Virus record (IMG/VR): IMGVR_UViG_3300021599_002910
Location: 62,001-126,000 of that record
Reading direction: 5' to 3' (one strand)
Length of the DNA: 64,000 bases
Source: an uncultured virus (IMG/VR IMGVR_UViG_3300021599_002910)
Taxonomy: Duplodnaviria > Heunggongvirae > Uroviricota > Caudoviricetes
In this document: in pieces, positions 5,689 to 54,757 of the stretch
Layout: each line of letters starts with the position of its first letter
How positions within the stretch are numbered: position 1 is the first letter of the stretch
The notes under the pieces: model-generated
Database searches by the model: none
What the model was told of the DNA's origin: nothing
The model's input: only the letters and a program-made list of their open reading frames with translations
Made by a program: the position numbers and the translations under genes

Positions 5689-5724
5689 GAATAAATATAT
5701 CCAAGAATTGAAAAAAAATCAATT

Positions 5725-18984: not shown

Positions 18985-18989
18985 AAGTG

Positions 18990-22208: not shown

Positions 22209-23299
22209 TTACTCAGAGGGGCTTTGATTGGTGGAGCTGAAAGGTAATTCATCAATTCGATATCAGTTACACGTATTTTGTTCCAGTCCACTAAATAACC
22301 ATCTCTATATTGGAACTCGAAATTTAAATTAACCCAAGGAAGCTCGTAGGATTGTCTCGACTTTTGCTCTATTGCTTGGTCTAAATGATTCATATAAAGA
22401 TGTGTATCACCCAAATTTCCAATTAACTGTTCTGGGACCATGTTTAAAAGTTTGCCGAACAAAGTCAGTAGTAAACCGTAAGATGCAATATTGAAGGGCA
22501 AGCCTAAGAAAGTATCAACTGAGCGTTGATTCCACATTAAAGAGATTGCTCGGGTTGGTACATTACAACTATCTAATAATCTCTTATCAATTAATTTACC
22601 ATTTGCTGGTTTGCCATAATTAAAAGGTGGAGAATTTTTTAAATCACTTCTTTCTTGATGACTCAACTCTCTCGTATAAACTTGAAATCCATAATGACAT
22701 GGGGGTAGAACCATTTCATCAATTTCTGCCACGTTCCACGCAGAAACCATTATTCTCCTACTGTCGGGGTCGGTTTTCAAAAGTTGAATTGCTCTTGAAA
22801 TTTGGTCAAACCACAACGAGCCCTTTTTATTCTCATCATAAGTCATCCATCCTTGCCATTGTCTCCATTGCTTACCGTAGATTGGTCCTAGTTCACCATA
22901 TTCTTTTGCAAACTTCTTATCGGTTTTAATTTTATCAATGAAATCCTCTTTGGTTTTCAAATTGAAATGAGGATGACTCGACATCGACGAATTCAATTCG
23001 AATTCACGTTTGGTGACCTTCAAATAGTTTTTATATGCATCTCCATCCCAAATATGACAATTGTTATCTACAAGAAATTTGATATTGGTGTCTCCCCTTA
23101 AAAACCATAGTAACTCCGTAACCATTGTTTTCCAAGCCATTTTTTTTGTGGTCAGGAGTGGAAAACCATCCTTCATGTTATGTCGAATGGTATAACCAAA
23201 GATTGATTTGGTACCTGTGCCGGTCCTATCAGTTTTTTCTACGCCATAATCAATTATGTCTTGTAAAAGTTGTTGATATTGTTTGTCCAAATTGTTCAT
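22205..23299 (-). CDS. thyA: thymidylate synthase
   Basis: DRTGTGT, FPLLTTKK, ELLWFL, LGPIYGKQWR, SRR, LPPCH, QRSVD.FLGLPFN, HLY.NH. Confidence 0.97.
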   Translation of the reverse strand: MNNLDKQYQQLLQDIIDYGVEKTDRTGTGTKSIFGYTIRHNMKDGFPLLTTKKMAWKTMVTELLWFLRGDTNIKFLVDNNCHIWDGDAYKNYLKVTKREFELNSSMSSHPHFNLKTKEDFIDKIKTDKKFAKEYGELGPIYGKQWRQWQGWMTYDENKKGSLWFDQISRAIQLLKTDPDSRRIMVSAWNVAEIDEMVLPPCHYGFQVYTRELSHQERSDLKNSPPFNYGKPANGKLIDKRLLDSCNVPTRAISLMWNQRSVDTFLGLPFNIASYGLLLTLFGKLLNMVPEQLIGNLGDTHLYMNHLDQAIEQKSRQSYELPWVNLNFEFQYRDGYLVDWNKIRVTDIELMNYLSAPPIKAPLSN

Positions 23300-33120: not shown

Positions 33121-33771
33121 TTACAAACCCAAAATATCGTCTACAATTTCTTGGCTTGATAAAGATTTCCATAATCTTGGATGTTGGTAAGACCAAAAAG
33201 TTTTCCAATTACCGAACCAAATGACACCCTCTTTTCTCGGGTCTACTGTTTTCCAATCATTACTGTTCTTTGGAAATTTACCTATCCTGTATGTCTTATA
33301 AGGTGTCAGATTTCTATCTTTGAATCTTGTTTCTGAGTATGAGTTAATTTCATCAAAATTTGAAATAATTTCTACGTGACATTCATTTCTTTTTTTGTAT
33401 GTCATACATCTTTTCAACCACACTGAAGCTTCGTCTAAATTATCCGTATCCAAAATAAATCTAACAAGTTGGTCTCGGTCATTATATCTGTGAGAGTAAA
33501 TTCTTTTCAATCCAAAAGTATCATCAAACTTATAAATTATGATTTCGAAGTCCATGTAAAACTCTATAGGTAGATGAAACTCTTTCATATACCAGTCATT
33601 CATAGTTGTGAAATGAATTCCCTCAACGATATAAGGTTGTTGGTCCCCTTTTTTAAATTCATGTAATTCAACATAATATAATTGTTCGGGTCCACCAACT
33701 CTGACTGTAATTCCTTTGTTAAAGTCAATCACAATTTTTTCATCACCTATTTGTGTAAACATAATTTCCAA
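33121..33771 (-). CDS. hypothetical protein
   Basis: 216-aa ORF directly downstream of the carbamoyltransferases. Confidence 0.65.
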   Translation of the reverse strand: MEIMFTQIGDEKIVIDFNKGITVRVGGPEQLYYVELHEFKKGDQQPYIVEGIHFTTMNDWYMKEFHLPIEFYMDFEIIIYKFDDTFGLKRIYSHRYNDRDQLVRFILDTDNLDEASVWLKRCMTYKKRNECHVEIISNFDEINSYSETRFKDRNLTPYKTYRIGKFPKNSNDWKTVDPRKEGVIWFGNWKTFWSYQHPRLWKSLSSQEIVDDILGL

Positions 33772-35335
33772 TAACTAATTTATCTAAAGTTTTATCTTGT
33801 AATTTAGAAAAGGCTTGTTCGGGGTTATCTACAATTGGTTCATTGTGAGTGTTGAAAGAAGTATTTAACAAAACAGGTATATTTGAAATTTTATAGTATT
33901 CATCAAGTATTTCCCAAAATTTGTAGTTCTTCTCTCTTTTTACAATCTGAGGTCTCGCAGTCTTATCTGATTTTTGGATTACCGCAGGTATTTTTTCAAT
34001 CCAATTCTCTTTAGTTTGATAACAAATAGTCATAAATTCTGCGGAGTATTTTGACTTTGTTTCAAAGAAAATTTCATCAAAATATTCTGACATTACAATA
34101 GGTGCAAATGGCATCGAATCATGTCTTTTCAACCTTTTGTTTAATTTACTATGAGTGTCTGAGCTTGTTGGTCTCATAAGAATACTTCTACCACCCAAGG
34201 CTCGTGGACCAAATTCAAATCCGTGTTGAAACCAACCGATAATTTCACCCTCATCAATATTCTTAGCGATTTCAGAAGGGTTATATATCTTTTTCTCAAA
34301 ATTATATTTTTGACTAATCAATGAAATTTGGTCATCATCATACTCTTTACCAAAAAAAACATTATCCAATTTGAATGGTTTTGTGATTTCACCCAAGTCT
34401 ACTGCTTTCTTTATACATGCACCTAAGCTTAACCCTTCGTCTCCCATAGGTGGAACAATATATATTTCCTCAACCCAAGGTAGTTGATTAATTTTTTGAT
34501 TTAATTTTACGTTGGCAAACAAACCACCAGAAAAACATAATTTTTTATAATCGGGAAATCTAGTGTGAAGGTCGTCTAAAAAATTAAGGAAAAGGTCTTC
34601 AGTTAATTTTTGTAAGTTAAACGAAAAAACCTGAAGTTTCTCTTGTGAGTCGAAATAACCTTTCCTGAACATTGTGTCTACAACAAATCTAGCTTTCGCA
34701 CCCGTATTCGATGGGAAAAATTTGAAGTCTTTGTAATCGATTATTGAATTCAGAATTTTATATATCCTCTCATCGTAAAACCCATCAGGTGCCATTCCCA
34801 TAAGTTTCCCTTCGTCTTTACACATTTTCCAAATGCTCTCTCCATTCTCGTTATATCCTCTAATTGAGGTCACACTGAATGCCCAAAGATGAGGTATACT
34901 TCCCGTTGTTGCAAAATCATAAGAATATGCCAAATTCATTTTACCATCTTCACAAAGGTAGACTTTCATTACGGTTTTGTCTCCTCCACCGTCGTATGAA
35001 ATACTTAAAACTTTTCCATCCATACCACTTGTAAAATAAGAACCATAGCAATGAGCATCGTGATGACCAACTCTCTCAAAATTATCCTTGGTCAATTTTT
35101 TTGCGAACGCATCGATTACCGGCTCAACAAAAACCCTATAATCAGCATCGTGAACATTAAGACCTGTGTATTTTTGAATTTCTTCTGAGGATAATTCTGG
35201 AAAACTGTCGAAGTTGTCACCAGCCTTAATTCTGGTTAATCTTTCTTCTTCTATACATGATACAATCTTTCCATTTCTAATTAAACACGCGGATGGACTA
35301 TGAGAACCACCAAAAAAACCATAAATCGTGCTCAT
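33743..35335 (-). CDS. carbamoyltransferase (CmcH/NodU family)
   Basis: EEERLTRIK, HHDAH, DGGGD, EGKLMGMA, GGLFANV, GDEG, EFGPRALG.RS, PFAP, LLNTSFN. Confidence 0.92.
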   Translation of the reverse strand: MSTIYGFFGGSHSPSACLIRNGKIVSCIEEERLTRIKAGDNFDSFPELSSEEIQKYTGLNVHDADYRVFVEPVIDAFAKKLTKDNFERVGHHDAHCYGSYFTSGMDGKVLSISYDGGGDKTVMKVYLCEDGKMNLAYSYDFATTGSIPHLWAFSVTSIRGYNENGESIWKMCKDEGKLMGMAPDGFYDERIYKILNSIIDYKDFKFFPSNTGAKARFVVDTMFRKGYFDSQEKLQVFSFNLQKLTEDLFLNFLDDLHTRFPDYKKLCFSGGLFANVKLNQKINQLPWVEEIYIVPPMGDEGLSLGACIKKAVDLGEITKPFKLDNVFFGKEYDDDQISLISQKYNFEKKIYNPSEIAKNIDEGEIIGWFQHGFEFGPRALGGRSILMRPTSSDTHSKLNKRLKRHDSMPFAPIVMSEYFDEIFFETKSKYSAEFMTICYQTKENWIEKIPAVIQKSDKTARPQIVKREKNYKFWEILDEYYKISNIPVLLNTSFNTHNEPIVDNPEQAFSKLQDKTLDKLVIGNYVYTNR

Positions 35336-35336
35336 A

Positions 35337-37007
35337 CTATCTTTTGATTAAATAATTTCCTATTACTAAGTAATCGAGTTTACAACTTAACATGGTGTCA
35401 ATTGCATTCTTTGGAGTTTCAACAATTGGTTCATGAGGGCCATTGAAACTCGTGTTGAGTAAAACTGGAACTCCTGTTTTGTTATAAAAACTCTCGATTA
35501 ATTTATAAAATTTATAATTAGATTTTTCTGAAACCGATTGATGTCTAGCGGAACCGTCAATGTGAGTTACTGCAGGTATTTTATCTCTCCAAGATTCTTT
35601 TACGTTAGTCGTAACCAACATATATGGAGAAAAAACATTAGAATCAAAAATTTCACTTTGGTGTTCAAATAACACGGCGGGTGCAAACGGTCTATACCAT
35701 TCTCTTTTTTTGATGTCTGAATTAATGTGACCTGTCATCCATTTGTTGATAGGTGATGCTAAGATTGAACGATTACCAAGAGCTCTAGGTCCAATTTCAG
35801 ATTGGTCTTGAAACCAGCCTATGACCCTATTTTGAGTTAACCAATGTGAGACTTTATCAACAAGTTCGTCAAAATCATCAAATCTTTCATGATATAAATT
35901 TGGGTATTGGTTTATTGCTGAAACAATATCATTGTTAGAATAATTTTTACCTATGTAAGGAGAAAGAAAATTATTTTTTTCAATCGGACTCATAAGTTGA
36001 TAACCATACCAGGCGCACCCTAAAGGGATTCCACTATCGTCAGAGGGAGGTATGAAGTAACAACCCTCAAACAATCCTGAGTTGAGGATTTTTTCGTTAG
36101 AATTACAATTAAGGAAAGACCCACCTGCCACGCAAATATTTTCAGAATCGGTCAATTCCTTTGCTTTCTTCGCTAACATTAGAGATACCCTTTCTTGTTC
36201 CCTTTGATATATTCCAGCAACACAAGCTCTTGAGAAAAAATCTGAATCATATGTCACTTTGGGATATATTCTATTATTTGGAATGAAAATATCTCCATCT
36301 TCTGTTTCAACAATATAATGTGGAGCTTCCTCGACTATGTCCTTGTCAGCATATGACGCAAGTCCCATCAGTTTACCTGCAGGCCAAGAATTGGTATTGG
36401 GTTCATAAATTAATTGAAGTGAACCTTCAGAGTAAACGGTTCCGACAGAAACATCTTCGTTAGTATCAATCGGAACAGGATATTTTATCCATTTCTTATA
36501 AACCTCTTTGTAATCATTTTTATTAAAATGATAAATTGAAATTGCTTCTGTCCAATCTTCTTCGTGATTGAGACCTTTCCTACTAACTTTCGGATACCAC
36601 TCAGGTAATTTATTTTTTTCATTCAAAATACTACCCGATGCGTCTGCAACAACCACAACGGCATCATCGAATCCTGAACTAAAAAAAGAAGAATATGCGT
36701 GGGCCAAATGATGAGGTAAAAACTCGAATTTACCCGTAGGGTCAAACTGAAATTCTTCGATAAACTTTTTTTGAACGTCATCAACAATTTCAGTTGTGCT
36801 GTAGACAAATAAATCGATATCTCTAAAAGTATATCCTGAATTTTCAAGACAATATCTTATAGATTCGGCAGGAATTAATCCACCTTGATGTGCTCCATCA
36901 TGTTTGATTCTTGAAATTCTTTCTTGAGTAATTCCAATCAAGACTTTTCCATTTTCAACAATAACAGCACCTTTGTCGTGTCCGACAGAAAATCCTAATA
37001 CCCTCAT
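35337..37007 (-). CDS. carbamoyltransferase (CmcH/NodU family)
   Basis: GHD, ERISRIKH, HHLAHAYS, AGKLMGLASY, GGSFLNC, EIGPRALGNRS, RPFAP, HIDGSAR.Q, LNTSFN. Confidence 0.93.
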   Translation of the reverse strand: MRVLGFSVGHDKGAVIVENGKVLIGITQERISRIKHDGAHQGGLIPAESIRYCLENSGYTFRDIDLFVYSTTEIVDDVQKKFIEEFQFDPTGKFEFLPHHLAHAYSSFFSSGFDDAVVVVADASGSILNEKNKLPEWYPKVSRKGLNHEEDWTEAISIYHFNKNDYKEVYKKWIKYPVPIDTNEDVSVGTVYSEGSLQLIYEPNTNSWPAGKLMGLASYADKDIVEEAPHYIVETEDGDIFIPNNRIYPKVTYDSDFFSRACVAGIYQREQERVSLMLAKKAKELTDSENICVAGGSFLNCNSNEKILNSGLFEGCYFIPPSDDSGIPLGCAWYGYQLMSPIEKNNFLSPYIGKNYSNNDIVSAINQYPNLYHERFDDFDELVDKVSHWLTQNRVIGWFQDQSEIGPRALGNRSILASPINKWMTGHINSDIKKREWYRPFAPAVLFEHQSEIFDSNVFSPYMLVTTNVKESWRDKIPAVTHIDGSARHQSVSEKSNYKFYKLIESFYNKTGVPVLLNTSFNGPHEPIVETPKNAIDTMLSCKLDYLVIGNYLIKR

Positions 37008-38330: not shown

Positions 38331-38999
38331 ATGAAATTTTTTCTTTTTTACGAAGACTTATTATCCGAAGCAAGATTGATGTCGGATGAAAAATTCGATT
38401 GGATTGTTAAGAACCTCGGAGAATGGTTATTCGAGGAATTATATTCGAAACCCCAGTTGATTAATTCCTTACCAAATATGGAGCAATTCAGAACATTCGT
38501 AAAATTTAAAACGACTGAAAAGGCAAATACAGATTCAGAGTTGGTCGGTGCATTGTATAGACTTGGCGATTTCTTGAATATGTTGAGTCCCAAAGAATCA
38601 CAAACTTTCATCAAATCAGTAAGCTCAACGTTTCCCAAAATTGCATCCAAGATATTAAGATATGGAAAACCTGAACCAACAGGAAAAAGAGGAAGACCCG
38701 CAGGTTCAAAAAATAAAGAAAAACAATTTGAACCCGAAATAAAAACTGACATTGCTTTTATTCCGAAAAAACAGGAAATACCTCAACCTTCAGAACCAAA
38801 GAAAAGAGGGCGAAAACCTCTCGAAAGTCCTTTAACATCTATGGAAAGATACCTATATAAAAAAGAGGGACCTGAAAAAATCCAAAGCCTCGAAATGAAA
38901 GTTAAAGAACTTGATTCAGAGATTGACCAAACTGTTCAGAGAATCAAGAAAATAATGCAAGACATAGAAAAAAGAAAAAACTTTTTTGGTATTCAATAA
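38331..38999 (+). CDS. protein with AT-hook-like motifs and C-terminal coiled coil
   Basis: GKRGRPAG and KKRGRKP. Confidence 0.65.
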   Translation: MKFFLFYEDLLSEARLMSDEKFDWIVKNLGEWLFEELYSKPQLINSLPNMEQFRTFVKFKTTEKANTDSELVGALYRLGDFLNMLSPKESQTFIKSVSSTFPKIASKILRYGKPEPTGKRGRPAGSKNKEKQFEPEIKTDIAFIPKKQEIPQPSEPKKRGRKPLESPLTSMERYLYKKEGPEKIQSLEMKVKELDSEIDQTVQRIKKIMQDIEKRKNFFGIQ

Positions 39000-39029
39000 T
39001 TTTTCATAACTTTGTGAAAATTATTAAAA

Positions 39030-39302
39030 ATGCCATACATAGATATTGATATCGAACCATACGAATTCGTTCGAGCTTGTAACAAAAGTGACATCAAAGA
39101 ATTGATTAAAGAACTTGTAGATGATGGTCATCTACCTCAGGCTCTCTATAATGAAAAAGGTGATGTTAAAAAGTCCATCAAACCTACAGGGTATGGTGAA
39201 AGGGAATTTGAGGAAAAACTCGATAAGTTAAAATCAAAATATTATTCGTTAACCAACGAAGAGGAAGAATATTTTGAAAAAGTCTTCAGTAGACTTTTAT
39301 AA
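39030..39302 (+). CDS. hypothetical protein
   Basis: 90-aa ORF; TAACTTTG upstream. Confidence 0.65.
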   Translation: MPYIDIDIEPYEFVRACNKSDIKELIKELVDDGHLPQALYNEKGDVKKSIKPTGYGEREFEEKLDKLKSKYYSLTNEEEEYFEKVFSRLL

Positions 39303-39324
39303 AATCCTTTGTATTTATTAGAAT

Positions 39325-39426
39325 ATGAAACAACTTTTTGTTAATACGAATTTAGTGTTCAGACCTACAACACCTAATGGTGATGGGGGTAATCTATGCT
39401 TAGATTCAGATACAGATGTAGGATAA
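39325..39426 (+). CDS. putative leader peptide of tRNA array 1 (33 aa)
   Basis: MKQLFVNTNLVFRPTTPNGDGGNLCLDSDTDVG*; TATTTAT at 39312-39318. Confidence 0.65.
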   Translation: MKQLFVNTNLVFRPTTPNGDGGNLCLDSDTDVG

Positions 39427-39447
39427 TAAAAAACAAAGCCAAACATT

Positions 39448-39481
39448 AAAACCCTGAATCTTGAAAGTTCGGGGTTTTTTT
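39448..39481 (+). terminator. intrinsic terminator / putative attenuator before tRNA array 1
   Basis: AAAACCCTGAA/TTCGGGGTTTT stem plus T-run. Its 5' arm CTGAATCT is complementary to AGATTCAG (39402-39409) in the leader. Confidence 0.75.
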
Positions 39482-39499
39482 ATTACCTTTGTTTAATAA

Positions 39500-39573
39500 T
39501 GGGAAGTGGCTCAGCCCGGTAGAGCACCTGGTTTGGGACCAGGGGGCCGCAGGTTCGAATCCTGTCTTCCCAA
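39500..39573 (+). tRNA. tRNA-Pro(TGG)
   Basis: Cloverleaf; CCTGG-TT-TGG-GA-CCAGG. Confidence 0.95.
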
Positions 39574-39579
39574 CAAAAC

Positions 39580-39651
39580 GTCTTCTTAGCTCAGCGGTAG
39601 AGCATCTCGCTGTTAACGAGAGGGTCCATGGTTCGAGCCCATGAGAGGACG
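39580..39651 (+). tRNA. tRNA-Asn(GTT)
   Basis: Cloverleaf; TCTCG-CT-GTT-AA-CGAGA. Confidence 0.93.
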
Positions 39652-39654
39652 CAA

Positions 39655-39841
39655 AACAGGTGAAGACTGTGGTGGAACCCCACGGTATATGAATCCCAAA
39701 GACGCCGTCTTGATTCGCGGTATCAGAGCGGTGAGGGTAGTGTTTACTATAAGTCAGGAGTAATTAACCAAAGACGAAAATGTAACCACCAATGTAGTAA
39801 TATGTTGGTCATGATGTGTAAAAGGACACAAAAAACCTGTT
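39655..39841 (+). ncRNA. unknown ~187-nt multi-hairpin RNA within tRNA array 1
   Basis: Closing stem AACAGGT/ACCTGTT with several internal hairpins; GC-richer than the genome; no long ORF. Confidence 0.6.
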
Positions 39842-39846
39842 CAAAT

Positions 39847-39920
39847 GGAGCGGTAGTTCAGTTGGCTAGAATGCTTGCCTGTCACGCAAGAGGTCGCGGG
39901 TTCGAGCCCCGTCCGTTCCG
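39847..39920 (+). tRNA. tRNA-Asp(GTC)
   Basis: Cloverleaf; CTTGC-CT-GTC-AC-GCAAG. Confidence 0.95.
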
Positions 39921-40039
39921 CTGGTAGAGTTTGTCCGTGGTAACGGTCTAATGGGAGAAATCCTTGCAGACTTCTCCATCCAAAATCCAATCATTGTTTC
40001 ACTGGTGATTGGGCTAAATGTGAAGGAAAAACGGAATAT

Positions 40040-40112
40040 GCGGGAGTAGCTCATTTGGTAGAGCGATAGCCTTCCAAGCTATAGGTGGCCAGTTCGAGCC
40101 TGGTCTCCCGCT
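40040..40112 (+). tRNA. tRNA-Gly(TCC)
   Basis: Cloverleaf; ATAGC-CT-TCC-AA-GCTAT. Confidence 0.95.
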
Positions 40113-40121
40113 CAGAAAATT

Positions 40122-40194
40122 GCGGAAGTAGCTCATTCGGTAGAGCACGACCTTGCCAAGGTCGGGGTGGCCAGTTCGAGCCTGGTCTTCCGCT
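40122..40194 (+). tRNA. tRNA-Gly(GCC)
   Basis: Cloverleaf; CGACC-TT-GCC-AA-GGTCG. Confidence 0.95.
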
Positions 40195-40200
40195 CACATC

Positions 40201-40273
40201 GCCTCCTTAGCTCAGCAGGTAGAGCAACTGATTTGTAATCAGTAGGTCGTTGGTTCGATTCCGACAGGAGGCT
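40201..40273 (+). tRNA. tRNA-Thr(TGT)
   Basis: Cloverleaf; ACTGA-TT-TGT-AA-TCAGT. Confidence 0.95.
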
Positions 40274-40279
40274 CAAATA

Positions 40280-40352
40280 GGGGAATTAGCTCAGTTGGTA
40301 GAGCACTTGATTTGCATTCAAGTTGTCGTGGGTTCGACTCCCTCATTCTCCA
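40280..40352 (+). tRNA. tRNA-Ala(TGC)
   Basis: Cloverleaf; CTTGA-TT-TGC-AT-TCAAG; G3:U70. Confidence 0.93.
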
Positions 40353-40368
40353 CTAAAATTTGAAAGTT

Positions 40369-40602
40369 ATGGAAATTTTTTGGTCTTATTATTTAATCTG
40401 TTTGGCTTATTGTCTTGTCATGTCAGTAAGAAAATGGAACAGAGATGTTATGGCAGGTGGTCTTGGTATCTCACCTGGATTAGATACTTTAGGTTTGATT
40501 ATCATGTGTTGGGTGTTAGCACCTGTTGATATTACTCTAACTTGGATACGTATCTATAAGGAAGCGGAAGAGGCAAGAAGAAACAACACAAAAATTTACT
40601 AA
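40369..40602 (+). CDS. small membrane protein
   Basis: Two hydrophobic helices; ATG at 40369. Confidence 0.6.
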   Translation: MEIFWSYYLICLAYCLVMSVRKWNRDVMAGGLGISPGLDTLGLIIMCWVLAPVDITLTWIRIYKEAEEARRNNTKIY

Positions 40603-41201
40603 TGCATATCTCAGAGAAACACAAAGTTTATTGGTTTACCCCACAAAGAACAGGAACACGTTCAACTAAAGAACTTCTTCGTGTTATGGGTTTTCAAACT
40701 TTTGACCATCATTTTACATTTGATTCCAACAAAAAAGACTATTTCTTCGTATCAAACGTTAGAAACCCTTACTCTAGACTAGTATCCCTGTTTTATTTGT
40801 ATTCACATCATTTGAATGATTTTCAAAAACATTTCAAAACTTGGGTTTTCGAATCCCTCGAAAACCCGAAAATAATTAATGATTATCAATTACAATATCA
40901 TAAAAATTATGAAATTTTGGGTAGACCATTTGATAAATTCATAAAACAGGAAAATTTGGAGAATGACCTCAAGTCTTTGAAATTTTTGGATTTGGAGAAT
41001 TCCGATATCAAGAAAACCTTTGATGAGTTCATAAGTAATAACAAATTCAAAACAGAATTTGAAGGACAAATGAATGAAAAAAGGAAACCATGGAAGGAAT
41101 TTTATGATGAAGAAGTATCCAACTACGTTTATAAAATTTTTGAGGAGCAATTTCATTTATTTGGTTATCGAAAAGAATCTTGGAGAAATGTCACACCCTA
41201 A
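40602..41201 (+). CDS. sulfotransferase family 2-like protein
   Basis: PQRTGTRS (5'-PSB-like loop); VRNPYSRLVS (3'-PB); FGY at the C-terminus. Confidence 0.75.
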   Translation: MHISEKHKVYWFTPQRTGTRSTKELLRVMGFQTFDHHFTFDSNKKDYFFVSNVRNPYSRLVSLFYLYSHHLNDFQKHFKTWVFESLENPKIINDYQLQYHKNYEILGRPFDKFIKQENLENDLKSLKFLDLENSDIKKTFDEFISNNKFKTEFEGQMNEKRKPWKEFYDEEVSNYVYKIFEEQFHLFGYRKESWRNVTP

Positions 41202-41541
41202 TTTACATGCAAAAAGTTCCGCTAAAAAGTTTGGTGGAAAACCTGAGGATTATATTCATTTACATGAGTGGATGGATGAGACCAAAGGTTGGTTCGGGGA
41301 TTCTTTACACAGAATGTTTAGACATCATTCGGAAGGGATTTTCGAAATGGAAAAGAGGTTTGGTCCTGAATTCAAAAACAGTGATGGTAAGACAGTCTAC
41401 ACCCGATATGTTGGTGAACAACACGTAAAGGAAGATTGTAATAATTATATCCCTTCCGCAAAAGAATGGATAAACAACATGGTATCGAACACAAGGCCAT
41501 CTTGGATGTTGAAAACAATAAAATTAGAGTTCGAAGATTGA
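41188..41541 (+). CDS. conserved phage protein (DUF6915-like)
   Basis: MSHP..HAKSS.KKFGG...DY...H.WMDE.K...HR..RHH.EGIF...EQHV.ED. Confidence 0.7.
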   Translation: MSHPNLHAKSSAKKFGGKPEDYIHLHEWMDETKGWFGDSLHRMFRHHSEGIFEMEKRFGPEFKNSDGKTVYTRYVGEQHVKEDCNNYIPSAKEWINNMVSNTRPSWMLKTIKLEFED

Positions 41542-41554
41542 TATTTATATTATC

Positions 41555-42259
41555 ATGAAAGATTTATTAACTAAAGACGAAAAAAAGTATTTAAATCGTA
41601 TCTGTCGTTATTTAGGTTCCATCGGAATGGAAGATGCATTTGTCGAATTCGAAATGAATACCTCTTATTTTGATTGTGACGATATCGATTGGAAAAATGT
41701 AACACATTTTTCAAATAATTACGTTGCGGAAATTCCTGAAGGATTAATTCCAATTTTTCAGAAAAGCATTTATTATGTTTGTGAAAATGAACTAATTAAA
41801 CAACCCGAATATGACGATATCAATTGGGGAAGAGTTATGATTGAGATTGATTGTAAAACTAGAGAAATTTCAATCTCCTATGACTATAGCTACTATGATG
41901 TTGGGAATACCGAATCTATTACTCATTCTTTGGAAGAAGACGACAATGAGGATTTAATGGAGCTTTTTGATACGTTAGAAAACGACGAGGAAATTAGTGA
42001 TAGAGTCCTTCAACTTGACTACAATGGAAGTGGTGACTCTGGTTACTTGGAAGACGATTTTACAAATGGTGATTCTGTTCCTGCGGTGGTTTCAGACTAC
42101 GCATACAGAATGCTTGAAAATAATTTTGGTGGATGGGAAATCAACGAAGGTTCTCAAGGTAATTTCGAAATTGATTTGGACCGTAAAGAGATAACCTTAA
42201 ATCACACAATGAATATTGAAGAAACAGAAAGAGATACTGTTTGGGAAGAAAAGTTCTAA
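41555..42259 (+). CDS. acidic protein with DUF6878-like C-terminal domain
   Basis: YNGSGDSG...GWEINEGSQG.F. Confidence 0.65.
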   Translation: MKDLLTKDEKKYLNRICRYLGSIGMEDAFVEFEMNTSYFDCDDIDWKNVTHFSNNYVAEIPEGLIPIFQKSIYYVCENELIKQPEYDDINWGRVMIEIDCKTREISISYDYSYYDVGNTESITHSLEEDDNEDLMELFDTLENDEEISDRVLQLDYNGSGDSGYLEDDFTNGDSVPAVVSDYAYRMLENNFGGWEINEGSQGNFEIDLDRKEITLNHTMNIEETERDTVWEEKF

Positions 42260-42301
42260 TTCATTTGTTTTTTCAATACTGATTCCTTACTTTTGTTTTA
42301 T

Positions 42302-42388
42302 ACCTTGGTGGCGAAATCGGTATACGCGCAAGACTTAAAATCTTGTGGACAGAAAATGTCCGTGTGGGTTCAAGTCCCACCTGAGGTA
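42302..42388 (+). tRNA. tRNA-Leu(TAA)
   Basis: Cloverleaf with long variable arm; CAAGA-CT-TAA-AA-TCTTG. Confidence 0.93.
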
Positions 42389-42504
42389 ATGAAATTGGAT
42401 TTGTTGTTGGGAGAGTTTATAATAGTATGACCCAAGAAGAAATAAATGATTTCATAAAAGGGTTTGAACACGGAGTTTCTCTAACAAACGGAACTCACTA
42501 AAAT

Positions 42505-42585
42505 ACCCCGATGGCGTAATGGTAGCCGCGTTGGTCTTAGGAACCAATGACTTCGGTCGTGAGAGTTCGAGTCTCTCTTGGGGTA
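42505..42585 (+). tRNA. tRNA-Leu(TAG)
   Basis: Cloverleaf with long variable arm; TTGGT-CT-TAG-GA-ACCAA. Confidence 0.93.
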
Positions 42586-42596
42586 CAGAAAAATAA

Positions 42597-42627
42597 TTTG
42601 ATTTTTAAAAGAGATTTACTATATTTG
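42597..42627 (+). promoter_or_regulatory. Bacteroidota-type promoter upstream of leader 2
   Basis: TTTG (42597-42600) and TATATTTG (42620-42627) match the -33/-7 consensus. Confidence 0.55.
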
Positions 42628-42644
42628 TAGTAATTATAATAATA

Positions 42645-42725
42645 ATGAGAACAATAGTGCGTAATAAAGTCTATAGTAAACAACAAGAGATTTGTTGGTT
42701 TAAGACACGCGCTGTAGTCTCATGA
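42645..42725 (+). CDS. putative leader peptide of tRNA array 2 (26 aa)
   Basis: MRTIVRNKVYSKQQEICWFKTRAVVS*. Confidence 0.65.
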   Translation: MRTIVRNKVYSKQQEICWFKTRAVVS

Positions 42726-42758
42726 GATAGCCTATAATTCCTGAAGAGTTATATATAC

Positions 42759-42800
42759 AAACCTCGGACTACAGAAATGAAGTTCGGGGTTTTTTTATTT
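42759..42800 (+). terminator. intrinsic terminator / putative attenuator before tRNA array 2
   Basis: AAACCTCGGACT/AGTTCGGGGTTT stem plus T-run. GACTACAG (42767-42774) is complementary to CTGTAGTC (42712-42719) in the leader. Confidence 0.75.
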
Positions 42801-42812
42801 AAGGAGTTTTTG

Positions 42813-42823
42813 GTTCTTTGAAA
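42813..42823 (+). promoter_or_regulatory. boxA-like antitermination element
   Basis: GTTCTTTGAAA; the same 11-mer lies just upstream of the tmRNA. Confidence 0.5.
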
Positions 42824-42848
42824 TAATGGTTGTAAGTTTGTAATTCTT

Positions 42849-42920
42849 GGCCCCGTCGTCTAAAGGTTAGGACGCCACCCTTTCACGGTGGAGATTTCGG
42901 TTCGAGTCCGTGCGGGGCTA
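42849..42920 (+). tRNA. tRNA-Glu(TTC)
   Basis: Cloverleaf; CCACC-CT-TTC-AC-GGTGG. Confidence 0.93.
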
Positions 42921-42927
42921 CAAATTC

Positions 42928-43000
42928 AGTCTCTTAGCTCAGTTGGAAGAGCACTTGCCTTACATGCAAGGTGTCGTAGGTTCGATTCCTACAGGGACTA
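42928..43000 (+). tRNA. tRNA-Val(TAC)
   Basis: Cloverleaf; CTTGC-CT-TAC-AT-GCAAG. Confidence 0.93.
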
Positions 43001-43005
43001 CAAAT

Positions 43006-43079
43006 GGTGACGTAGCTCAGTTGGGCTTAGGCGGAAGTCTGCAAAACTTTCTACGTAGGTTCGATTCCTATCCTGACCT
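43006..43079 (+). tRNA. tRNA-Cys(GCA), with two acceptor-stem mismatches
   Basis: GAAGT-CT-GCA-AA-ACTTT; U73; acceptor GGTGACG/CCTGACC has G:G and C:C mismatches. Confidence 0.75.
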
Positions 43080-43085
43080 CAATAA

Positions 43086-43159
43086 TGGAATGTAACTCAG
43101 TTGGTTAGAGTGCTAATCTGATACGTTAGATGTCGGCGGTTCGAATCCGCCCATTCCAA
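43086..43159 (+). tRNA. tRNA-Ile(GAT)
   Basis: Cloverleaf; CTAAT-CT-GAT-AC-GTTAG. Confidence 0.92.
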
Positions 43160-43173
43160 CAAATAAAATTGTT

Positions 43174-43698
43174 ATGAGACGTAAAATTATTTTTATTGAT
43201 GTAGATGGACCACTGGCATGGGGAACTTGGGGTGATGGGAGAGTTACGCTGAACGAACACAGTAAAACTTTTACAATCCCTTACCCATGGGTTGAAGATG
43301 ATTGTCAAGCACTTCAAAAAATTTGTGATGAAACAAACGCAAGTTTAGTTGTGAGTTCGGATTGGAGAAAACATTTCAGTTTTATACAATTAAAACGTAT
43401 TTTCCAATACTATGGTGTAACAGCTCCGATTGTAGATATCACAACCCATCAGGACCTTTGGAATAAACTTAGTAGACCTTCAATTGAGTGGGAAAGAGCA
43501 GCAGAAATCACAAAGTGGGTAAAAGATAATAAAATCTCAAATTGGATTTCAATCGACGACATGAAACTTGATGGTCAATATAAATGGATGAAACCAAGAG
43601 TTCCGATGTGGAGACACGTTCAGGTAGATGGTGACTTCGGGTATGGTGGTAGATTAAGAGATAAAATAGATGAATGTATAAAAAAACTTGAGAGATAA
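43174..43698 (+). CDS. HAD-superfamily phosphatase (Swiss-Army-knife RNA-repair-type HAD)
   Basis: IIFIDVDG.L, LVVSSDWR, R..EI..W, WISIDD. Confidence 0.8.
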   Translation: MRRKIIFIDVDGPLAWGTWGDGRVTLNEHSKTFTIPYPWVEDDCQALQKICDETNASLVVSSDWRKHFSFIQLKRIFQYYGVTAPIVDITTHQDLWNKLSRPSIEWERAAEITKWVKDNKISNWISIDDMKLDGQYKWMKPRVPMWRHVQVDGDFGYGGRLRDKIDECIKKLER

Positions 43699-43726
43699 TT
43701 CGTTATCTTTGTATAAATAAAAAATT

Positions 43727-44275
43727 ATGAAAATCAATAGAGCGGATTTGTTATGGTTCCTGAATAACATCCGAAGAAAACAAGAAGGAAAAGAACTAAG
43801 TGATGAGATGCTTGTTGACCACTTAGCGCATTACATGGAGGCAAATCCAAGATGTGTTGATATGTTAGGTGTAAGCACTCGTGGTAGATTCAGTTATTCA
43901 ACTGTGGGATATGGTGTATTTTCACTCATGGGTGAAAAATACAGAATGGGTAGAATCGAGGTTTTCGACAGTAAAAATGAAAGTGGATATCAGGTTCATG
44001 AAGGAATCTACACAATGCCTTATGAATCGGCAAGTCAATTCGAAGATTTTATCGAATCCTTGGAAACTGACTTACCAATAAACATAGAGATAGGTTCTCA
44101 CAACTGGTGTGAAGAGGAATGTGCGAAATCATTAGGTTTCAAAGATTCCGATGAAATGAGAGACCCCGATAAAGTGAAAGAATATACTCGGAAAAAAAAC
44201 GATGAGTATGCTCGTGAACAAGGATATGAAGATTGGGATGACTTACTCTCTAAAAGTAAATGGACGAAAAAATAA
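43727..44275 (+). CDS. hypothetical protein
   Basis: 182-aa ORF; TATCTTTG upstream. Confidence 0.7.
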   Translation: MKINRADLLWFLNNIRRKQEGKELSDEMLVDHLAHYMEANPRCVDMLGVSTRGRFSYSTVGYGVFSLMGEKYRMGRIEVFDSKNESGYQVHEGIYTMPYESASQFEDFIESLETDLPINIEIGSHNWCEEECAKSLGFKDSDEMRDPDKVKEYTRKKNDEYAREQGYEDWDDLLSKSKWTKK

Positions 44276-44280
44276 GTCAC

Positions 44281-44353
44281 GCGTGCGTAGCTCAATTGGT
44301 AGAGTACTAGTCTCCAAAACTAGGTGTTGTAGGTTCGAGTCCTACCGTGCGTG
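44281..44353 (+). tRNA. tRNA-Trp(CCA)
   Basis: Cloverleaf; CTAGT-CT-CCA-AA-ACTAG. Confidence 0.93.
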
Positions 44354-44358
44354 CAAAT

Positions 44359-44491
44359 AGGTTGATTGGGGAATGGTGATACTAATGACTCGAGAGTGTA
44401 TTTCGGTCTGTATCATCGGAGTTGGGAGAAATACACCTGAGTAATGCCAATCGTAAAAGGAGATGTCCACGCAACCATCTTCTCCTTTCCT
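44359..44491 (+). ncRNA. unknown ~133-nt structured RNA with a potential pseudoknot
   Basis: GATTGG/CCAATC, ACTC/GAGT, GTGTATTTC/GAAATACAC, AAAGGAGA/TCTCCTTT stems; crossing GGTGATAC/GTATCATC pairing. Confidence 0.6.
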
Positions 44492-44495
44492 TAAT

Positions 44496-44577
44496 GGGAG
44501 TATCGCCTAGTGGCAATGGCAGAAGACTGTAAATCTTCCCTCTTTCGAGTTCGTTGGTTCGAGTCCAGCTACTCCCA
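44496..44577 (+). tRNA. tRNA-Tyr(GTA)
   Basis: Cloverleaf with long variable arm; GAAGA-CT-GTA-AA-TCTTC. Confidence 0.93.
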
Positions 44578-44580
44578 CAA

Positions 44581-44642
44581 AAATGATTGAAGTCCTGAGT
44601 GGTGTCAGGAGGAAGTAACACAACCAAGTGTAACAATCATTT
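44581..44642 (+). ncRNA. unknown 62-nt three-way-junction RNA
   Basis: AAATGATTG/CAATCATTT closing stem; TCCTGA/TCAGGA and ACAC/GTGT hairpins. Confidence 0.55.
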
Positions 44643-44644
44643 AA

Positions 44645-44718
44645 GGACCCTTAGCTCAGTTGGTTAGAGCGGCTGACTCATAATCAGTAGGTCCACGGTT
44701 CAAGTCCGTGAGGGTCCA
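44645..44718 (+). tRNA. tRNA-CAT (probably Ile2; elongator Met not excluded)
   Basis: GCTGA-CT-CAT-AA-TCAGT; paired G1-C72, so not fMet; GGACCCT acceptor resembles Ile2. Confidence 0.85.
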
Positions 44719-44723
44719 CATTA

Positions 44724-44794
44724 TATCCTCTGGTGTAACGGTAACACAATTGGTTTTGGTCCAATTATTCAAGGTTCGAATCCTTGGGGGATAA
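44724..44794 (+). tRNA. tRNA-Gln(TTG)
   Basis: Cloverleaf; ATTGG-TT-TTG-GT-CCAAT; U1-A72. Confidence 0.92.
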
Positions 44795-44889
44795 CAAATT
44801 TTTATTATGAATAATATTTGTGGAATTCACGGAACACTTTTAGACAAAGACGGACTTTGTCCGAAATGTTTAGAAGAAAATAACAGATA

Positions 44890-44962
44890 GGTCTTATCGT
44901 ATAATGGATGAATACACTTCGCTACGGACGAAGAAATTTGGGTTCGAATCCTAGTAAGACCT
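44890..44962 (+). tRNA. tRNA-Arg(ACG)
   Basis: Cloverleaf; CTTCG-CT-ACG-GA-CGAAG. Confidence 0.92.
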
Positions 44963-44974
44963 CGTAAGTAATAT

Positions 44975-45048
44975 GGTGAACGTAGCTCAGTTGGAAGAGC
45001 ACTAGCTTGTGGCGCTAGTTGTCGTGGGTTCGAACCCCATCGTTCACA
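44975..45048 (+). tRNA. tRNA-His(GTG)
   Basis: CTAGC-TT-GTG-GC-GCTAG; G-1 present; discriminator reads A rather than C. Confidence 0.88.
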
Positions 45049-45052
45049 CAAA

Positions 45053-45137
45053 GGAGAGTTGCCTGAGTGGTTAAAGGAGCAGTTTGCTAAACTGTGGTCG
45101 AGCAATTGGCCTATTGGTTCGAATCCAATACTCTCCG
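45053..45137 (+). tRNA. tRNA-Ser(GCT)
   Basis: Cloverleaf with long variable arm; GCAGT-TT-GCT-AA-ACTGT. Confidence 0.93.
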
Positions 45138-45238
45138 CAAAAAAAAGTTTACACTGCTAATTGACGATTCTGAAAAACTTTTCTATATTTATAAACTCAA
45201 GACGTTATTAAAACATTAACAAAAAAAACAAAAAGAAA

Positions 45239-45409
45239 ATGAAAAAAATCCTTGCAATCTTGTCAATCGTAGCATTGGCATCATGTGGAAACGGAGCAAC
45301 ATCAAACGAAGTAAAAACCGATTCAACTGCTGTAGTAGCAGACTCAACATTGGTAGACTCTACAGTAGCTCCAGTTGTAGATTCTGTTAGAGCAGAAGAA
45401 GTAAAATAA
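45239..45409 (+). CDS. small lipoprotein (56 aa, not in ORF track)
   Basis: MKKILAILSIVALASC lipobox followed by DST/DSV repeats; TATTTAT upstream; terminator downstream. Confidence 0.8.
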   Translation: MKKILAILSIVALASCGNGATSNEVKTDSTAVVADSTLVDSTVAPVVDSVRAEEVK

Positions 45410-45432
45410 TATATTCTTCTACAACGAACTAA

Positions 45433-45463
45433 TAAAAAACCCCTCATTTGAGGGGGTTTTTTT
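45433..45463. terminator. bidirectional intrinsic terminator
   Basis: AAAAAACCCCTCA-TT-TGAGGGGTTTTTTT between convergent genes. Confidence 0.8.
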
Positions 45464-46757
45464 ATAATAGTCCTTTTATTCTTTTTATATTTTCTTGTAA
45501 TTTACCTTCGTTTTGTTGTTTTTTCTTATTGAAAACTTTTTTGAAGGCGTTTGCAATCCATGGGTCGACATCTCTTTTTGAGTCCCAATCTTTCCACTTT
45601 TTTGTTTTGAGTTCACCTGTGTCCTTGTCGTATACATTTCCAAAAATCTTTTTTGGTAATAAAATCAAACCAGCAAGTGCAGGGTCCGAATATTGTCTAT
45701 TACTACCTTTTATATATACTTTCTTATTAGGCTCTTTCTCTTTTTGTTTATCAACAAAAGAATCAAATTTTTGCGGGTCTATATTTTTTCTATTATATGA
45801 TTTGTCGAGAAACAACACCTCAGCATTGTCCTTACTATCCATAGTTCCAATATCTTGACCTTGAGAAACAGGGTCACCATTATTTACTTTCTTGGTTGTC
45901 ATTCCACAATACTGTAAAAAAAACTGAGGTTGTGTTGATGACTCAATTGTCACCTCATTTTTACATCCTTGAACAAATCTTTTGTTGTTTACTACACCAT
46001 CTATCGGACTTTTCACTCTTGGATTACTCGAACCAGGAATTACAATAGTTCCCATATTACTTTGGATGTTTTTTCCGAAACCTTCTTTAAGATTAAAAAC
46101 CTTACTACCAATGTCTTTAGCGACTAAGTAAAGTAATGGGTTTTGTTCTTCCGCACTTTTGGATTTTGATTTTGTTCCACCTATATTGATTTTTTCACCA
46201 TAGGCACCTGCCTTGGTTGTGTCTGAAGTTCCATCTTCAGTTGAATCGTCTGAACTTGGTTGGTAGTTGGGGTCTACAGAAGACGGTGAACCAGTTGTAT
46301 TTGAAACGTGAACGTGATTATCGTGGCCTGCAAAACCGAAGGTCAAAACAGCTTTAGGATGTGATGAACCCTCAGCATTCTTATTGTAACCCATACTTAG
46401 AAGAGCATTTACAAACTTGTCAACAACGTCTCTATTTTTTGGACTTACAACTTTTCCTCCTATATAGTCAATGTCTACGGCATTTTGAGACCAGTGTCTA
46501 CTTACATTACCACTTTTTGCATATTTGCCGTGGTCAGTCTTTGCGAAATCAATCGTGATGTCCAAACCTGTCATTTGAGATGCTTTTTGTAAGTCGTCCA
46601 ATAAAGCTTTATTTATCTCATCTTGTCTAGTTCTTTTAGCAAATTTCAAATTTGGATATAAAGACTCATCAGGTTTTATATAGACCTCAGAGACCATATC
46701 CTTATTCTTATCAAATTGATTATAAAGTTTTTGTATGTTAGTTAGTATGTTCGACAT
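45462..46757 (-). CDS. putative peptidoglycan hydrolase: M15-like peptidase plus degenerate M23-like domain
   Basis: SRH...AVDI...H.NHVHV; VKSPIDGVV...V..GD.VSQGQ.IG lacking the M23 His ligands. Confidence 0.6.
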   Translation of the reverse strand: MSNILTNIQKLYNQFDKNKDMVSEVYIKPDESLYPNLKFAKRTRQDEINKALLDDLQKASQMTGLDITIDFAKTDHGKYAKSGNVSRHWSQNAVDIDYIGGKVVSPKNRDVVDKFVNALLSMGYNKNAEGSSHPKAVLTFGFAGHDNHVHVSNTTGSPSSVDPNYQPSSDDSTEDGTSDTTKAGAYGEKINIGGTKSKSKSAEEQNPLLYLVAKDIGSKVFNLKEGFGKNIQSNMGTIVIPGSSNPRVKSPIDGVVNNKRFVQGCKNEVTIESSTQPQFFLQYCGMTTKKVNNGDPVSQGQDIGTMDSKDNAEVLFLDKSYNRKNIDPQKFDSFVDKQKEKEPNKKVYIKGSNRQYSDPALAGLILLPKKIFGNVYDKDTGELKTKKWKDWDSKRDVDPWIANAFKKVFNKKKQQNEGKLQENIKRIKGLL

Positions 46758-54283: not shown

Positions 54284-54292
54284 AATCTGCTG

Positions 54293-54685
54293 TGGAGAAG
54301 ACGGGAGTCGAACCCGTGTCTTGTTCGCGACAACTATAAGTGACTACACGTTTATTACAACATTGTTTCTCAATGTTCCGAAATATTAGGTTTGATATAT
54401 GTGAGAAACCCACCTACAAACAACTTGGTCTCAGAATTATTTTAAACGAGCTCTGACCTGTGACCCGTATATTGGACTTCTGTTCCTAGGTTAATGTCCT
54501 AACCGACCCGAGTGTCGTGACTTAAATTAAGCAACAACAGTAGCTTCTTCAGCGATTAAACCGATAGCAGCCATCTTAGCAAAAGTATTGCCATTTGTTT
54601 TTTCAAATCAGTTGATAAAGGAGTTAACTCAGCTCCTACGTGCCACCTATAACTACACACGCCAATCAATTGCCATGACTTCCCC
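54293..54685 (-). ncRNA. ssrA: tmRNA
   Basis: 5' GGGGAAG pairs with 3' CTTCTCC (G3:U70); T-arm GGGTTCGACTCCC; tag ORF at 54592-54527 reads GNTFAKMAAIGLIAEEATVVA*. Confidence 0.92.
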
Positions 54686-54757
54686 AATATTTTCAAAGAA
54701 CACAACAAAGATATACATAAATATTAAATTTCCAAATTAAAAGTCTATTTATACGAT

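Follow-up and report, generated by a model that had tools for sequence, protein, structure and literature searches.

Why would a phage place a short open reading frame (ORF) and an intrinsic terminator ahead of its transfer RNA (tRNA) genes? This question is raised by a 64,000-nucleotide stretch of DNA, hereafter the window, from an uncultured virus of the Caudoviricetes (IMG/VR record IMGVR_UViG_3300021599_002910, positions 62,001 to 126,000). The window carries 21 tRNA genes and one transfer-messenger RNA (tmRNA) gene, and 20 of the tRNAs are located on the + strand within 39500–45138. An initial annotation of this DNA described two ORF–terminator units in front of two tRNA blocks and interpreted them as leader-peptide attenuators. 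Our analysis of the window and of homologous loci favors this interpretation. Each unit appears to be a ribosome-mediated (leader-peptide) transcription attenuator in which read-through feeds the tRNAs that read its own sensing codons. On the basis of sequence and predicted structure, we estimate the probability of this reading to be roughly 70%.

Under the proposed mechanism, transcription would start at or just before the ATG of the leader ORF. Two alternative pairings would be open to the 3′ end of the ORF (region 2): one with the first codons (region 1) and the other with the 5′ arm of the terminator (region 3). Region 3 would otherwise pair with region 4, which creates the terminator. Smooth translation of the leader would bring a ribosome to the stop codon, where it covers region 2; the terminator would then form and the transcript would end. 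If the ribosome waits at a middle codon for a charged tRNA of the downstream set, then region 2 would be free to pair with region 3, and the polymerase would continue into the tRNA block. The net effect would be to place each tRNA set under feedback from the decoding speed of its own codons. In the window, basal transcription probably comes from a separate promoter located past each terminator, and the switch would add to it. We infer the direction of the switch and its physiological trigger (starvation, anticodon nucleases) from sequence features.

Both units have the composition first described, namely a promoter, a short ORF (33 and 26 codons), an intrinsic terminator and a tRNA block, and all of these elements lie on the + strand. 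Unit 1 begins with a degenerate −7 promoter-like element, recognizable in the sequence at 39312–39319, that is located 5 bases before the leader 1 start codon. Its relatives carry a TAnnTTTA-type element 5 to 13 bases upstream of the ATG. The closeness of the −7 element to the ATG implies that the leader messenger RNA (mRNA) would be leaderless or nearly so. The 33-codon ORF (39325–39426) remains an ORF in 7 of 7 distinct homologs, and its translation lacks Glu, Ile, Trp, Tyr, and His. Region 1 (39348–39358) pairs with 39396–39407 in the full-length fold, and an equivalent pairing between the 5′ and 3′ parts of the ORF is seen in all seven homologs. Codons 14–22 (39364–39390) form the proposed sensing run and all specify Pro, Thr, Asn, Gly, or Asp, each of which is represented in block 1. 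Region 2 (39402–39409), the antiterminator strand, can pair with 39454–39461 in the 5′ arm and loop of the terminator. Terminator 1 (39448–39481) is a 12-pair hairpin (39448–39478) followed by a T run. A −7 type TAnnTTTG element at 39484–39491, a possible leader-independent start, lies between this terminator and block 1 (39500–40353), which contains genes for Pro, Asn, Asp, Gly(tcc), Gly(gcc), Thr, and Ala tRNAs.

Unit 2 starts with a bipartite TTTG-N19-TAnnTTTG promoter motif (42597–42627). Leader 2 (42645–42725) has 26 codons, and its translation lacks Pro, Gly, Asp, and Leu. The absences in both peptides agree with the initial annotation. Region 1 (42645–42662) pairs with 42707–42723, the proposed sensing part comprises codons 7–20 (42663–42704), and region 2 (42712–42719) can pair as the antiterminator strand with 42767–42774. 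In both units, the two partners of this last pairing are the 8-base complements that had been pointed out. Terminator 2 (42759–42797), a hairpin at 42759–42792 plus a T run, was missed by a simple terminator scan and was identified as the 3′ hairpin of the minimum-energy fold. A 13-base 3′ arm and T run common to both terminators has exactly two occurrences in the 64 kb, versus an expected 0.20. A second bipartite promoter motif (42809–42840) separates terminator 2 from the tRNA-Glu gene. Block 2 consists of Glu, Val, Cys, and Ile (block 2a, 42849–43160) followed, after two protein genes, by Trp, Tyr, CAT, Gln, Arg(acg), His, and Ser(gct) (block 2b, 44281–45138). All of the tRNAs originally named for the arrays were located; the list had omitted Leu(taa) and Leu(tag), which span 42301–42586. 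These two genes, with a small conserved ORF between them, are preceded by a bipartite promoter (42264–42295), and this segment (42264–42586) is located downstream of leader 1 and upstream of leader 2.

Unit 2 contains one additional structure, a highly conserved hairpin between regions 2 and 3 (42733–42753; 81% of cells paired). Together with its flanks, this hairpin is the unit's most conserved stretch across 16 homologs. It plays no part in a simple attenuator model and might serve in pausing or in processing.

The window is part of a 137-kb contig with near-identical siblings among uncultured viral contigs (L001–L004, 317–321 kb). A distant blastn search with 39000–45300 against a cultured-phage database matched 1971 records over tRNA sequence only, and none covers 80% of the query. 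Relatives were collected from IMG/VR, with 60 loci found via a gene inside block 2 and more via four DNA patterns. Units were selected by a rule that required a promoter motif 4–20 bases before an ATG, an ORF of 18–60 codons, a hairpin of −11 kcal/mol or lower with a T run, and a tRNA within 140 bases. This rule yielded 37 distinct units, of which one doubtful case was dropped and 36, with at least 1400 bases downstream, were kept.

The 36 units fall into four groups. Seven precede tRNA-Pro (leader 1 type), 13 precede tRNA-Glu (leader 2 type), 15 are from distant phages, and one is from locus L157. Behind the 15 distant-phage units, the array begins with Asn or Ile and in many cases includes nearly all tRNAs. 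The L157 leader, at 1502–1640 on the reverse strand (locus coordinates of the oriented sequence), constitutes the fourth leader type; at the equivalent place, the window has the promoter at 42264–42295 alone. Because the selection rule demands an ATG, this codon is no independent test in the distant and L157 families. The four groups share much the same first eight codons and have similar terminators, and they probably represent one family that diversified.

The predicted RNA structures agree with the proposed switch. The full-length fold of leader 2 has an energy of −47.6 kcal/mol (z = −6.05), and 0 of 200 shuffled sequences were as stable. For leader 1, the z score is −2.71 and 2 of 200 shuffles were as stable. 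The fold of the full RNA contains both the 1:2 pairing and the terminator in 16 of 16 distinct leader-2 sequences (alignment A1) and in 7 of 7 leader-1 sequences. To represent the alternative state, the 5′ part was masked, which mimics the ribosome, and the terminator 3′ arm was treated as not yet made. The 3′ end of the ORF then pairs with the terminator 5′ arm in the 16 leader-2 and 7 leader-1 sequences, with antiterminator energies of −13 to −21 and −10.5 to −20.4 kcal/mol, respectively. Terminator hairpins range from −12.8 to −21.9 kcal/mol, each followed by a T run. The attenuator architecture proposed for these units is borne out to this extent: the ORF, the terminator, the mutually exclusive 1:2, 2:3, and 3:4 pairings, and the placed control codons were all found.

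The best antiterminator duplex of leader 2 has an energy of −16.0 kcal/mol, versus −8.6 ± 2.2 kcal/mol in 500 shuffles (p = 0.006). The corresponding values for leader 1 are −10.5 versus −7.0 ± 2.0 kcal/mol in 500 shuffles (p = 0.06). The leader 1 pairing alone is not beyond chance, and its weight comes from compensatory change in relatives: an A-U pair in the window, L147, and L124 is replaced by a G-C pair in L005, L006, L008, and L100, with both sides changed. Overall, the antiterminator exists in three sequence versions in the leader-2 family and in two in the leader-1 family, and its strands change together, such that compensatory changes in the 8-base pairings are present in both families. 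In alignment A1, the antiterminator helix has 94.4% of its cells paired, versus 33–40% when slid, and three of its nine pairs are doubly changed. The terminator has 95.8% of cells paired. Support is weaker for the 16-pair 1:2 helix (69.9% of cells paired, 4 of 16 pairs doubly changed), whose register varies by group.

The antiterminator duplex outperforms 95% of shuffles in 23 of the 36 units, and its position in most units is between 26 bases before and 5 bases after the stop codon. For the L157 leader, no antiterminator duplex identified by the automatic search surpassed shuffles (p = 0.87); visual inspection shows a six-base complement just past the stop codon.

From the way in which the homologs vary, we infer that the leaders are translated. 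The ATG of leader 2 is invariant and codons 1–20 are gap-free in 16 of 16 distinct homologs, with single-base gaps appearing thereafter. Among the seven leader 1 homologs, gaps inside the ORF are all multiples of three, whereas gaps past the stop codon are not. A six-codon core of leader 2 (42681–42698) has undergone synonymous third-position changes only, in every homolog but L074, and one of these changes breaks a small hairpin that the core could form. The first and last leader codons vary between groups in step with the pairings. Constraint seems to act at the RNA level on the leader ends and at the codon level on the middle.

A further claim is that each leader corresponds in composition to the tRNAs that follow it. 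Of the 32 residues of leader 1, 22 belong to its own set (Pro, Asn, Asp, Gly, Thr, Ala, Leu) and 7 to that of block 2; of the 25 residues of leader 2, 17 belong to the set of its own block and 4 to that of block 1. For the two window leaders together, the contrast between own-block and other-block residues gives a Fisher p of 1.3 × 10−4, which is in accord with the claim. Of the 302 ATG ORFs of 20–60 codons in the window, 0.7% reach the own-set share of leader 1 and 4% reach that of leader 2. The same contrast is repeated in six other two-unit genomes. The residues private to the leader's own block versus those private to the other block number 21 versus 9 and 19 versus 3 in one genome, and in the remaining five 22 versus 5 and 14 versus 7, 21 versus 5 and 15 versus 5, 25 versus 4 and 21 versus 5, 19 versus 4 and 20 versus 5, and 8 versus 2 and 22 versus 0.

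The single leader of L157 presents a highly specific case. Its 22 codons include eight for Leu (five TTA) and four for Arg (all AGA), and it directly precedes Leu(taa), Arg(tct), and Leu(tag) (binomial p = 5.7 × 10−7). A broader comparison was made by redealing the tRNA blocks among the 36 leaders, which gave a matching score of 628 ± 27 versus 835 observed, with 0 of 20,000 shuffles as high; this score partly reflects family differences and leader length. Trees were also built from the unit flanks, with the sensing codons left out, and independent pairs differing in a given tRNA were compared. The leader residue changed in the same direction as the tRNA in 21.4 pairs, in the opposite direction in 1.7, and showed no difference in 34.9 (sign test, ∼7 × 10−5). 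Both results indicate that leader composition covaries with array content. The fact that leader and array are physically linked cannot make them agree in amino-acid identity.

Agreement extends to the choice of codon. In leader 1 and the Leu/Arg leader of L157, AGA is the Arg codon when Arg(tct) is downstream; in the leader 2 sensing part, CGT is used when Arg(acg) is downstream. Likewise, where the downstream array includes Ser(gct), the leader 2 sensing part uses AGT for Ser. Leader 2 has Arg and Lys codons at two positions only where Arg(acg) and Lys tRNAs follow, with L008 as the one exception, and these codons have been replaced in both tail types of the family. Similar exchanges are evident in the distant family. 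Among its near-identical leaders, that of L162 has two Ile codons beside the Trp codon and is followed by an Ile tRNA, and both features are missing from L166 and L156. At the same place, L169 has Lys and Ile codons and carries both tRNAs; L158 lacks the codons and the tRNAs. Codons 7–20 of leader 2 have a downstream tRNA in 13 of 14 cases when the block of the sibling contigs is used.

The siblings L001–L004 differ from the window contig in their arrays. Extra Phe and Lys tRNAs follow Val and precede Cys in the siblings, and their two Leu genes flank an Arg(tct) gene; in the window contig, tRNA-Phe and tRNA-Lys are absent at 42928–43080 and tRNA-Arg(tct) at 42389–42505. This absence seems to reflect either a recent deletion or variation between strains. 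The window and the four siblings have the same leader 2, Phe and Lys codons included.

If region 2 defines where a waiting ribosome can exert an effect, then matched codons should be concentrated at a certain distance from it. Positions were pooled from 28 units, related to one another, whose block covers at most 70% of background composition. Codons that start 12–59 bases before region 2 are matched at 71–86%, versus 43% expected. Those 0–11 bases before region 2 are matched at 47–57%, and those inside region 2 at 39–61% in three well-populated bins. Matching of the first leader codons is near background. Within the window, the last codon of the fully matched run is number 22 in leader 1 and number 18 in leader 2. 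The leading edge of a ribosome is ∼12 bases ahead of its A site. When this footprint is applied, codons 22 and 18 would be the last at which a ribosome with that codon in its A site leaves 39402 and 42712, respectively, free.

How strictly would such a switch gate the tRNAs? The bipartite TTTG-N-TAnnTTTG motif occurs 17 times in the window, versus 3.5 ± 1.5 in shuffles, and it is also present upstream of tRNA-Leu and the tmRNA. Because of this enrichment and placement, the motif is very likely a promoter of the phage or its host. We take it to be the Bacteroidota promoter consensus, and it is from this motif only that we suggest a Bacteroidota host. The initial annotation had cautioned that TAnnTTTG elements at 39484–39491 and 42833–42840 might permit leader-independent transcription. 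Both elements are present, and the second belongs to the bipartite motif at 42809–42840.

Several observations weigh against a switch on which the tRNAs depend. A −7 motif is located 3′ of the terminator in 13 of 13 leader-2 homologs and is part of a full bipartite form in 12 of them. In 5 of 7 leader-1 homologs, the interval from terminator 1 to tRNA-Pro contains a −7 element; no bipartite motif was found there. With promoter motifs behind both terminators, transcription of the tRNAs need not rely on read-through. A strict attenuator would have no promoter between the terminator and its genes, and the window, as judged by motif, has predicted promoters there. Leader 1 is absent from five relatives (L012, L016, L018, L033/L035, and L042), in which a promoter alone precedes tRNA-Pro. 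In the close relative L040 (∼5560–5710), leader 2 has decayed, with its ATG lost and its terminator kept. The leader-2-like unit of locus L074 (1404–1556) precedes small protein ORFs, and the 1.46 kb behind it contain no tRNA.

Other adverse points concern the codon match and the statistics. Leader 2 of the window holds three Lys codons and one Phe codon on a contig with neither a Lys nor a Phe tRNA. These codons, and the AGA of leader 1, are explained by the Phe, Lys, and Arg(tct) tRNAs that the siblings carry. Val codons occur in L006 and L008 without a Val tRNA, and leader 1 of L147 has four Asp codons before a block that lacks tRNA-Asp. When blocks were shuffled within families, the match was significant only in the distant family (p = 5 × 10−5), and it was not in the leader 2 (p = 0.07) and leader 1 (p = 0.17) families. 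The units are kin, so pooled counts are not independent, and independent pairs for different amino acids share branches. Finally, the helices scored on alignment A1 were derived from the window's own fold, which favors them somewhat; the relevant evidence for the helices consists of the slid controls and the compensatory pairs.

These points bear on the strictness of control. The original statement that replacement tRNAs are transcribed only upon a shortage is overstated for the window, where a promoter motif follows each terminator ahead of the tRNAs. In 14 of 14 units of the distant family, only 4–19 bases without any promoter motif separate the T run from the first tRNA, and the first tRNAs of these arrays would therefore be reachable by read-through alone. 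Strict gating thus fits the distant relatives only. Because a promoter follows each terminator in the window, the switch there probably boosts tRNA transcription over a basal level and is not the sole gate. The downstream promoters, the lost leaders, and the unit of L074 that has no tRNAs suggest that the switch is dispensable in the window's clade and is most likely used for topping up.

Several of the same observations could be accommodated by a different view, in which the small ORFs are ordinary micro-protein genes or leftovers, the terminators insulate tRNA blocks that run from their own promoters, and the likeness of leader composition to tRNA content is non-regulatory. The promoter motifs after both terminators, the five relatives that lack leader 1, the L074 unit without tRNAs behind it, and the conservation of the peptides over much of their length within families are all consistent with this view. 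It fails, however, on the conserved and covarying antiterminator that overlaps the 3′ end of the ORF, on the agreement between residues and tRNAs over independent pairs, on the Arg codon choice and the Leu/Arg leader before Leu-Arg-Leu, and on the confinement of matched codons to a stretch defined by region 2. Moreover, a Pfam scan of 10 neighboring proteins revealed no known peptide-maturation, peptide-modifying, or export family. We consider this explanation improbable. A similarly small chance is assigned to the possibility that the units are translation-coupled attenuators that sense any slowdown of the ribosome, such as that caused by a defense system or host shut-off, and are not specific for the downstream tRNAs. 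Any stall within the middle codons would trigger the same architecture, and the distant-family leaders use most amino acids and precede nearly complete arrays. A general sensor, however, would not account for the finding that split or reduced arrays have leaders that are split or reduced likewise, or for the high specificity of the Leu/Arg leader.

Least likely, at about half the weight of either of these, is an RNA-only element in which the ORF is incidental, for instance one that responds to a trans-acting small RNA or one that switches by binding a protein, a metabolite, or a tRNA directly. The RNA is indeed strongly structured, as the z score of leader 2 attests, its very conserved middle hairpin falls outside the attenuator model, and a transcript that starts at its ATG is unusual for an mRNA. 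Yet the ATG and frame are kept in all homologs, gaps within the frame are limited to multiples of three, and synonymous changes are observed. An Rfam search of 38500–46000 at expectation (E) values up to 1 found no T-box, and the leaders were unmatched by any family save for one chance-level hit (E = 0.99). Direct pairing also cannot explain why a dozen codons match a dozen tRNAs. Ribosome-mediated attenuation tuned to the downstream tRNAs therefore remains our preferred explanation.

The surroundings of the two units include other features of note. Two protein genes lie within block 2 (43174–44275, + strand), and Pfam assigns to the first of them (43174–43698) an RNA-repair type HAD domain, HAD_SAK_2 (E = 8.8 × 10−20), which is the HAD domain of ‘Swiss Army Knife’ RNA-repair proteins. 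This gene is kept in the 60 related loci, mostly within tRNA arrays. Its presence fits a setting where tRNA damage matters and proves nothing about the trigger. The scan of the 10 neighboring proteins otherwise identified Sulfotransfer_2 (just under the cut-off), DUF6915, and DUF6878. Small ORFs are also located among the tRNA genes. One of 24 codons (42427–42501, + strand) lies between the Leu tRNAs and is kept in relatives, and one of 27 codons (44807–44890, + strand) between the Gln and Arg tRNAs encodes two Cys pairs and is zinc-ribbon-like.

Two array spacers on the + strand, Asn–Asp (39653–39846) and Trp–Tyr (44355–44495), are long and have no Rfam match. The Asn-to-Asp spacing is identical in L001–L005, and the fold z scores of the two spacers are −2.2 and −0.85, respectively. 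Public sequencing data include 17 DNA runs that cover most of the stretch and three RNA-labeled runs with shares of 0.05–0.08. The RNA-labeled runs contribute short contigs, mostly of conserved tRNA sequence from other organisms, and one of the three is probably DNA. Two contigs of this probable DNA run span the leader 2 unit and the junction from its terminator to tRNA-Glu; these contigs cannot show a transcript. Contigs from an RNA-labeled run match the Asn–Asp and Trp–Tyr spacers at 100% and 98% identity with depths of 71 and 12, compared with ∼3 for neighboring protein genes. These spacers may be stable RNAs of no known family.

Elsewhere in the window, tRNA-Ser(tga) (18989–19077) is preceded by a promoter motif alone, with no leader in front. 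The tmRNA gene (54292–54736, − strand) specifies a tag ending in VVA and has a bipartite promoter motif directly upstream (54706–54736). The − strand also carries two tandem Nol-like carbamoyltransferase genes (33743–37007), a Lon-type ATP-dependent protease gene (57317–59332), and a thymidylate synthase gene (22205–23299). A PHROGs scan of 24 window proteins found no structural or taxonomic marker, and most of the other large proteins have no PHROG family.

Leader-peptide attenuators control the trp, his, leu, thr, and multivalent ilv operons for amino-acid biosynthesis in enterobacteria, and the thr and ilv leaders sense several amino acids at once. The phage units resemble these systems in having a short ORF between promoter and terminator, exclusive 1:2, 2:3, and 3:4 pairings, and control codons placed such that a stalled ribosome frees the antiterminator strand. 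As in the thr and ilv leaders, several amino acids would be sensed together. Unlike these operons, the phage units would control tRNAs and not biosynthetic enzymes, and the sensor would thus read its product's own activity. In the phage leaders, up to a dozen or more different amino acids each appear once or twice, in place of runs of one to three, and these leaders belong to a phage-borne, diversifying family with at least four types in one clade. Further differences are the seemingly leaderless mRNA and, in the window, the second promoter after the terminator.

Another parallel is the pheST operon of Escherichia coli, which encodes phenylalanyl-tRNA synthetase and has an attenuator with the leader pheM. 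In this case, too, a component of the translation apparatus is under leader-peptide attenuation that responds to charged-tRNA supply, but pheST/pheM is a cellular system that controls a synthetase and answers to a single amino acid. In the T-box riboswitches of Gram-positive bacteria, the RNA binds one uncharged tRNA directly, with no ribosome or ORF involved. There, as proposed here, tRNA status decides between terminator and antiterminator; the phage units differ in having an ORF and in matching no T-box or other Rfam model. Leaders of inducible antibiotic-resistance genes, such as vmlR and mef/mel, are reported likewise to rely on a ribosome stalled on a short ORF to open an attenuator. They sense a drug via a specific arrest peptide, whereas the phage leaders would sense the decoding of a codon palette.

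To our knowledge, leader-peptide attenuation is known for amino-acid or tRNA synthetase operons and not for tRNA genes. A full-text literature search, whose scope excluded subscription journals and old papers, returned no paper in which tRNA genes or phage tRNA arrays are controlled by a leader peptide or an attenuator. PMC3082878 was considered as a precedent and set aside, as the passage in question concerns the promoter of a tRNA operon and not a leader. The parts and logic of the mechanism are known, but controlled tRNA genes, a mixed codon palette, and a phage setting are not among the known systems.

Taken across the family, the data lead us toward a broader proposal, which we favor with somewhat less confidence than the attenuator itself. 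This clade of giant freshwater phages may carry modular, fast-evolving decoding sensors, by which each tRNA block receives autogenous feedback from the decoding speed of its own codons. A shared 5′ module and terminator would serve as the chassis, and the middle codons would be rewritten when a block gains tRNAs, loses them, or is split from them.

If this is true, then these units would be the first known case of leader-peptide control of tRNA genes. They would give the virus a built-in means to replace tRNAs that are depleted or cut during infection, with a gene of RNA-repair type within the array. Regulation of tRNA supply by the speed of ribosomes on matching codons would be a direct feedback loop, and it would explain how tRNA arrays of large phages are regulated, a form of control that is essentially unstudied. 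A sensor of this kind would be a compact and reprogrammable part for synthetic biology. The codon palette of each leader would constitute a genomic readout of the tRNAs that the phage treats as limiting, and the reason that phages carry tRNAs would become directly testable.

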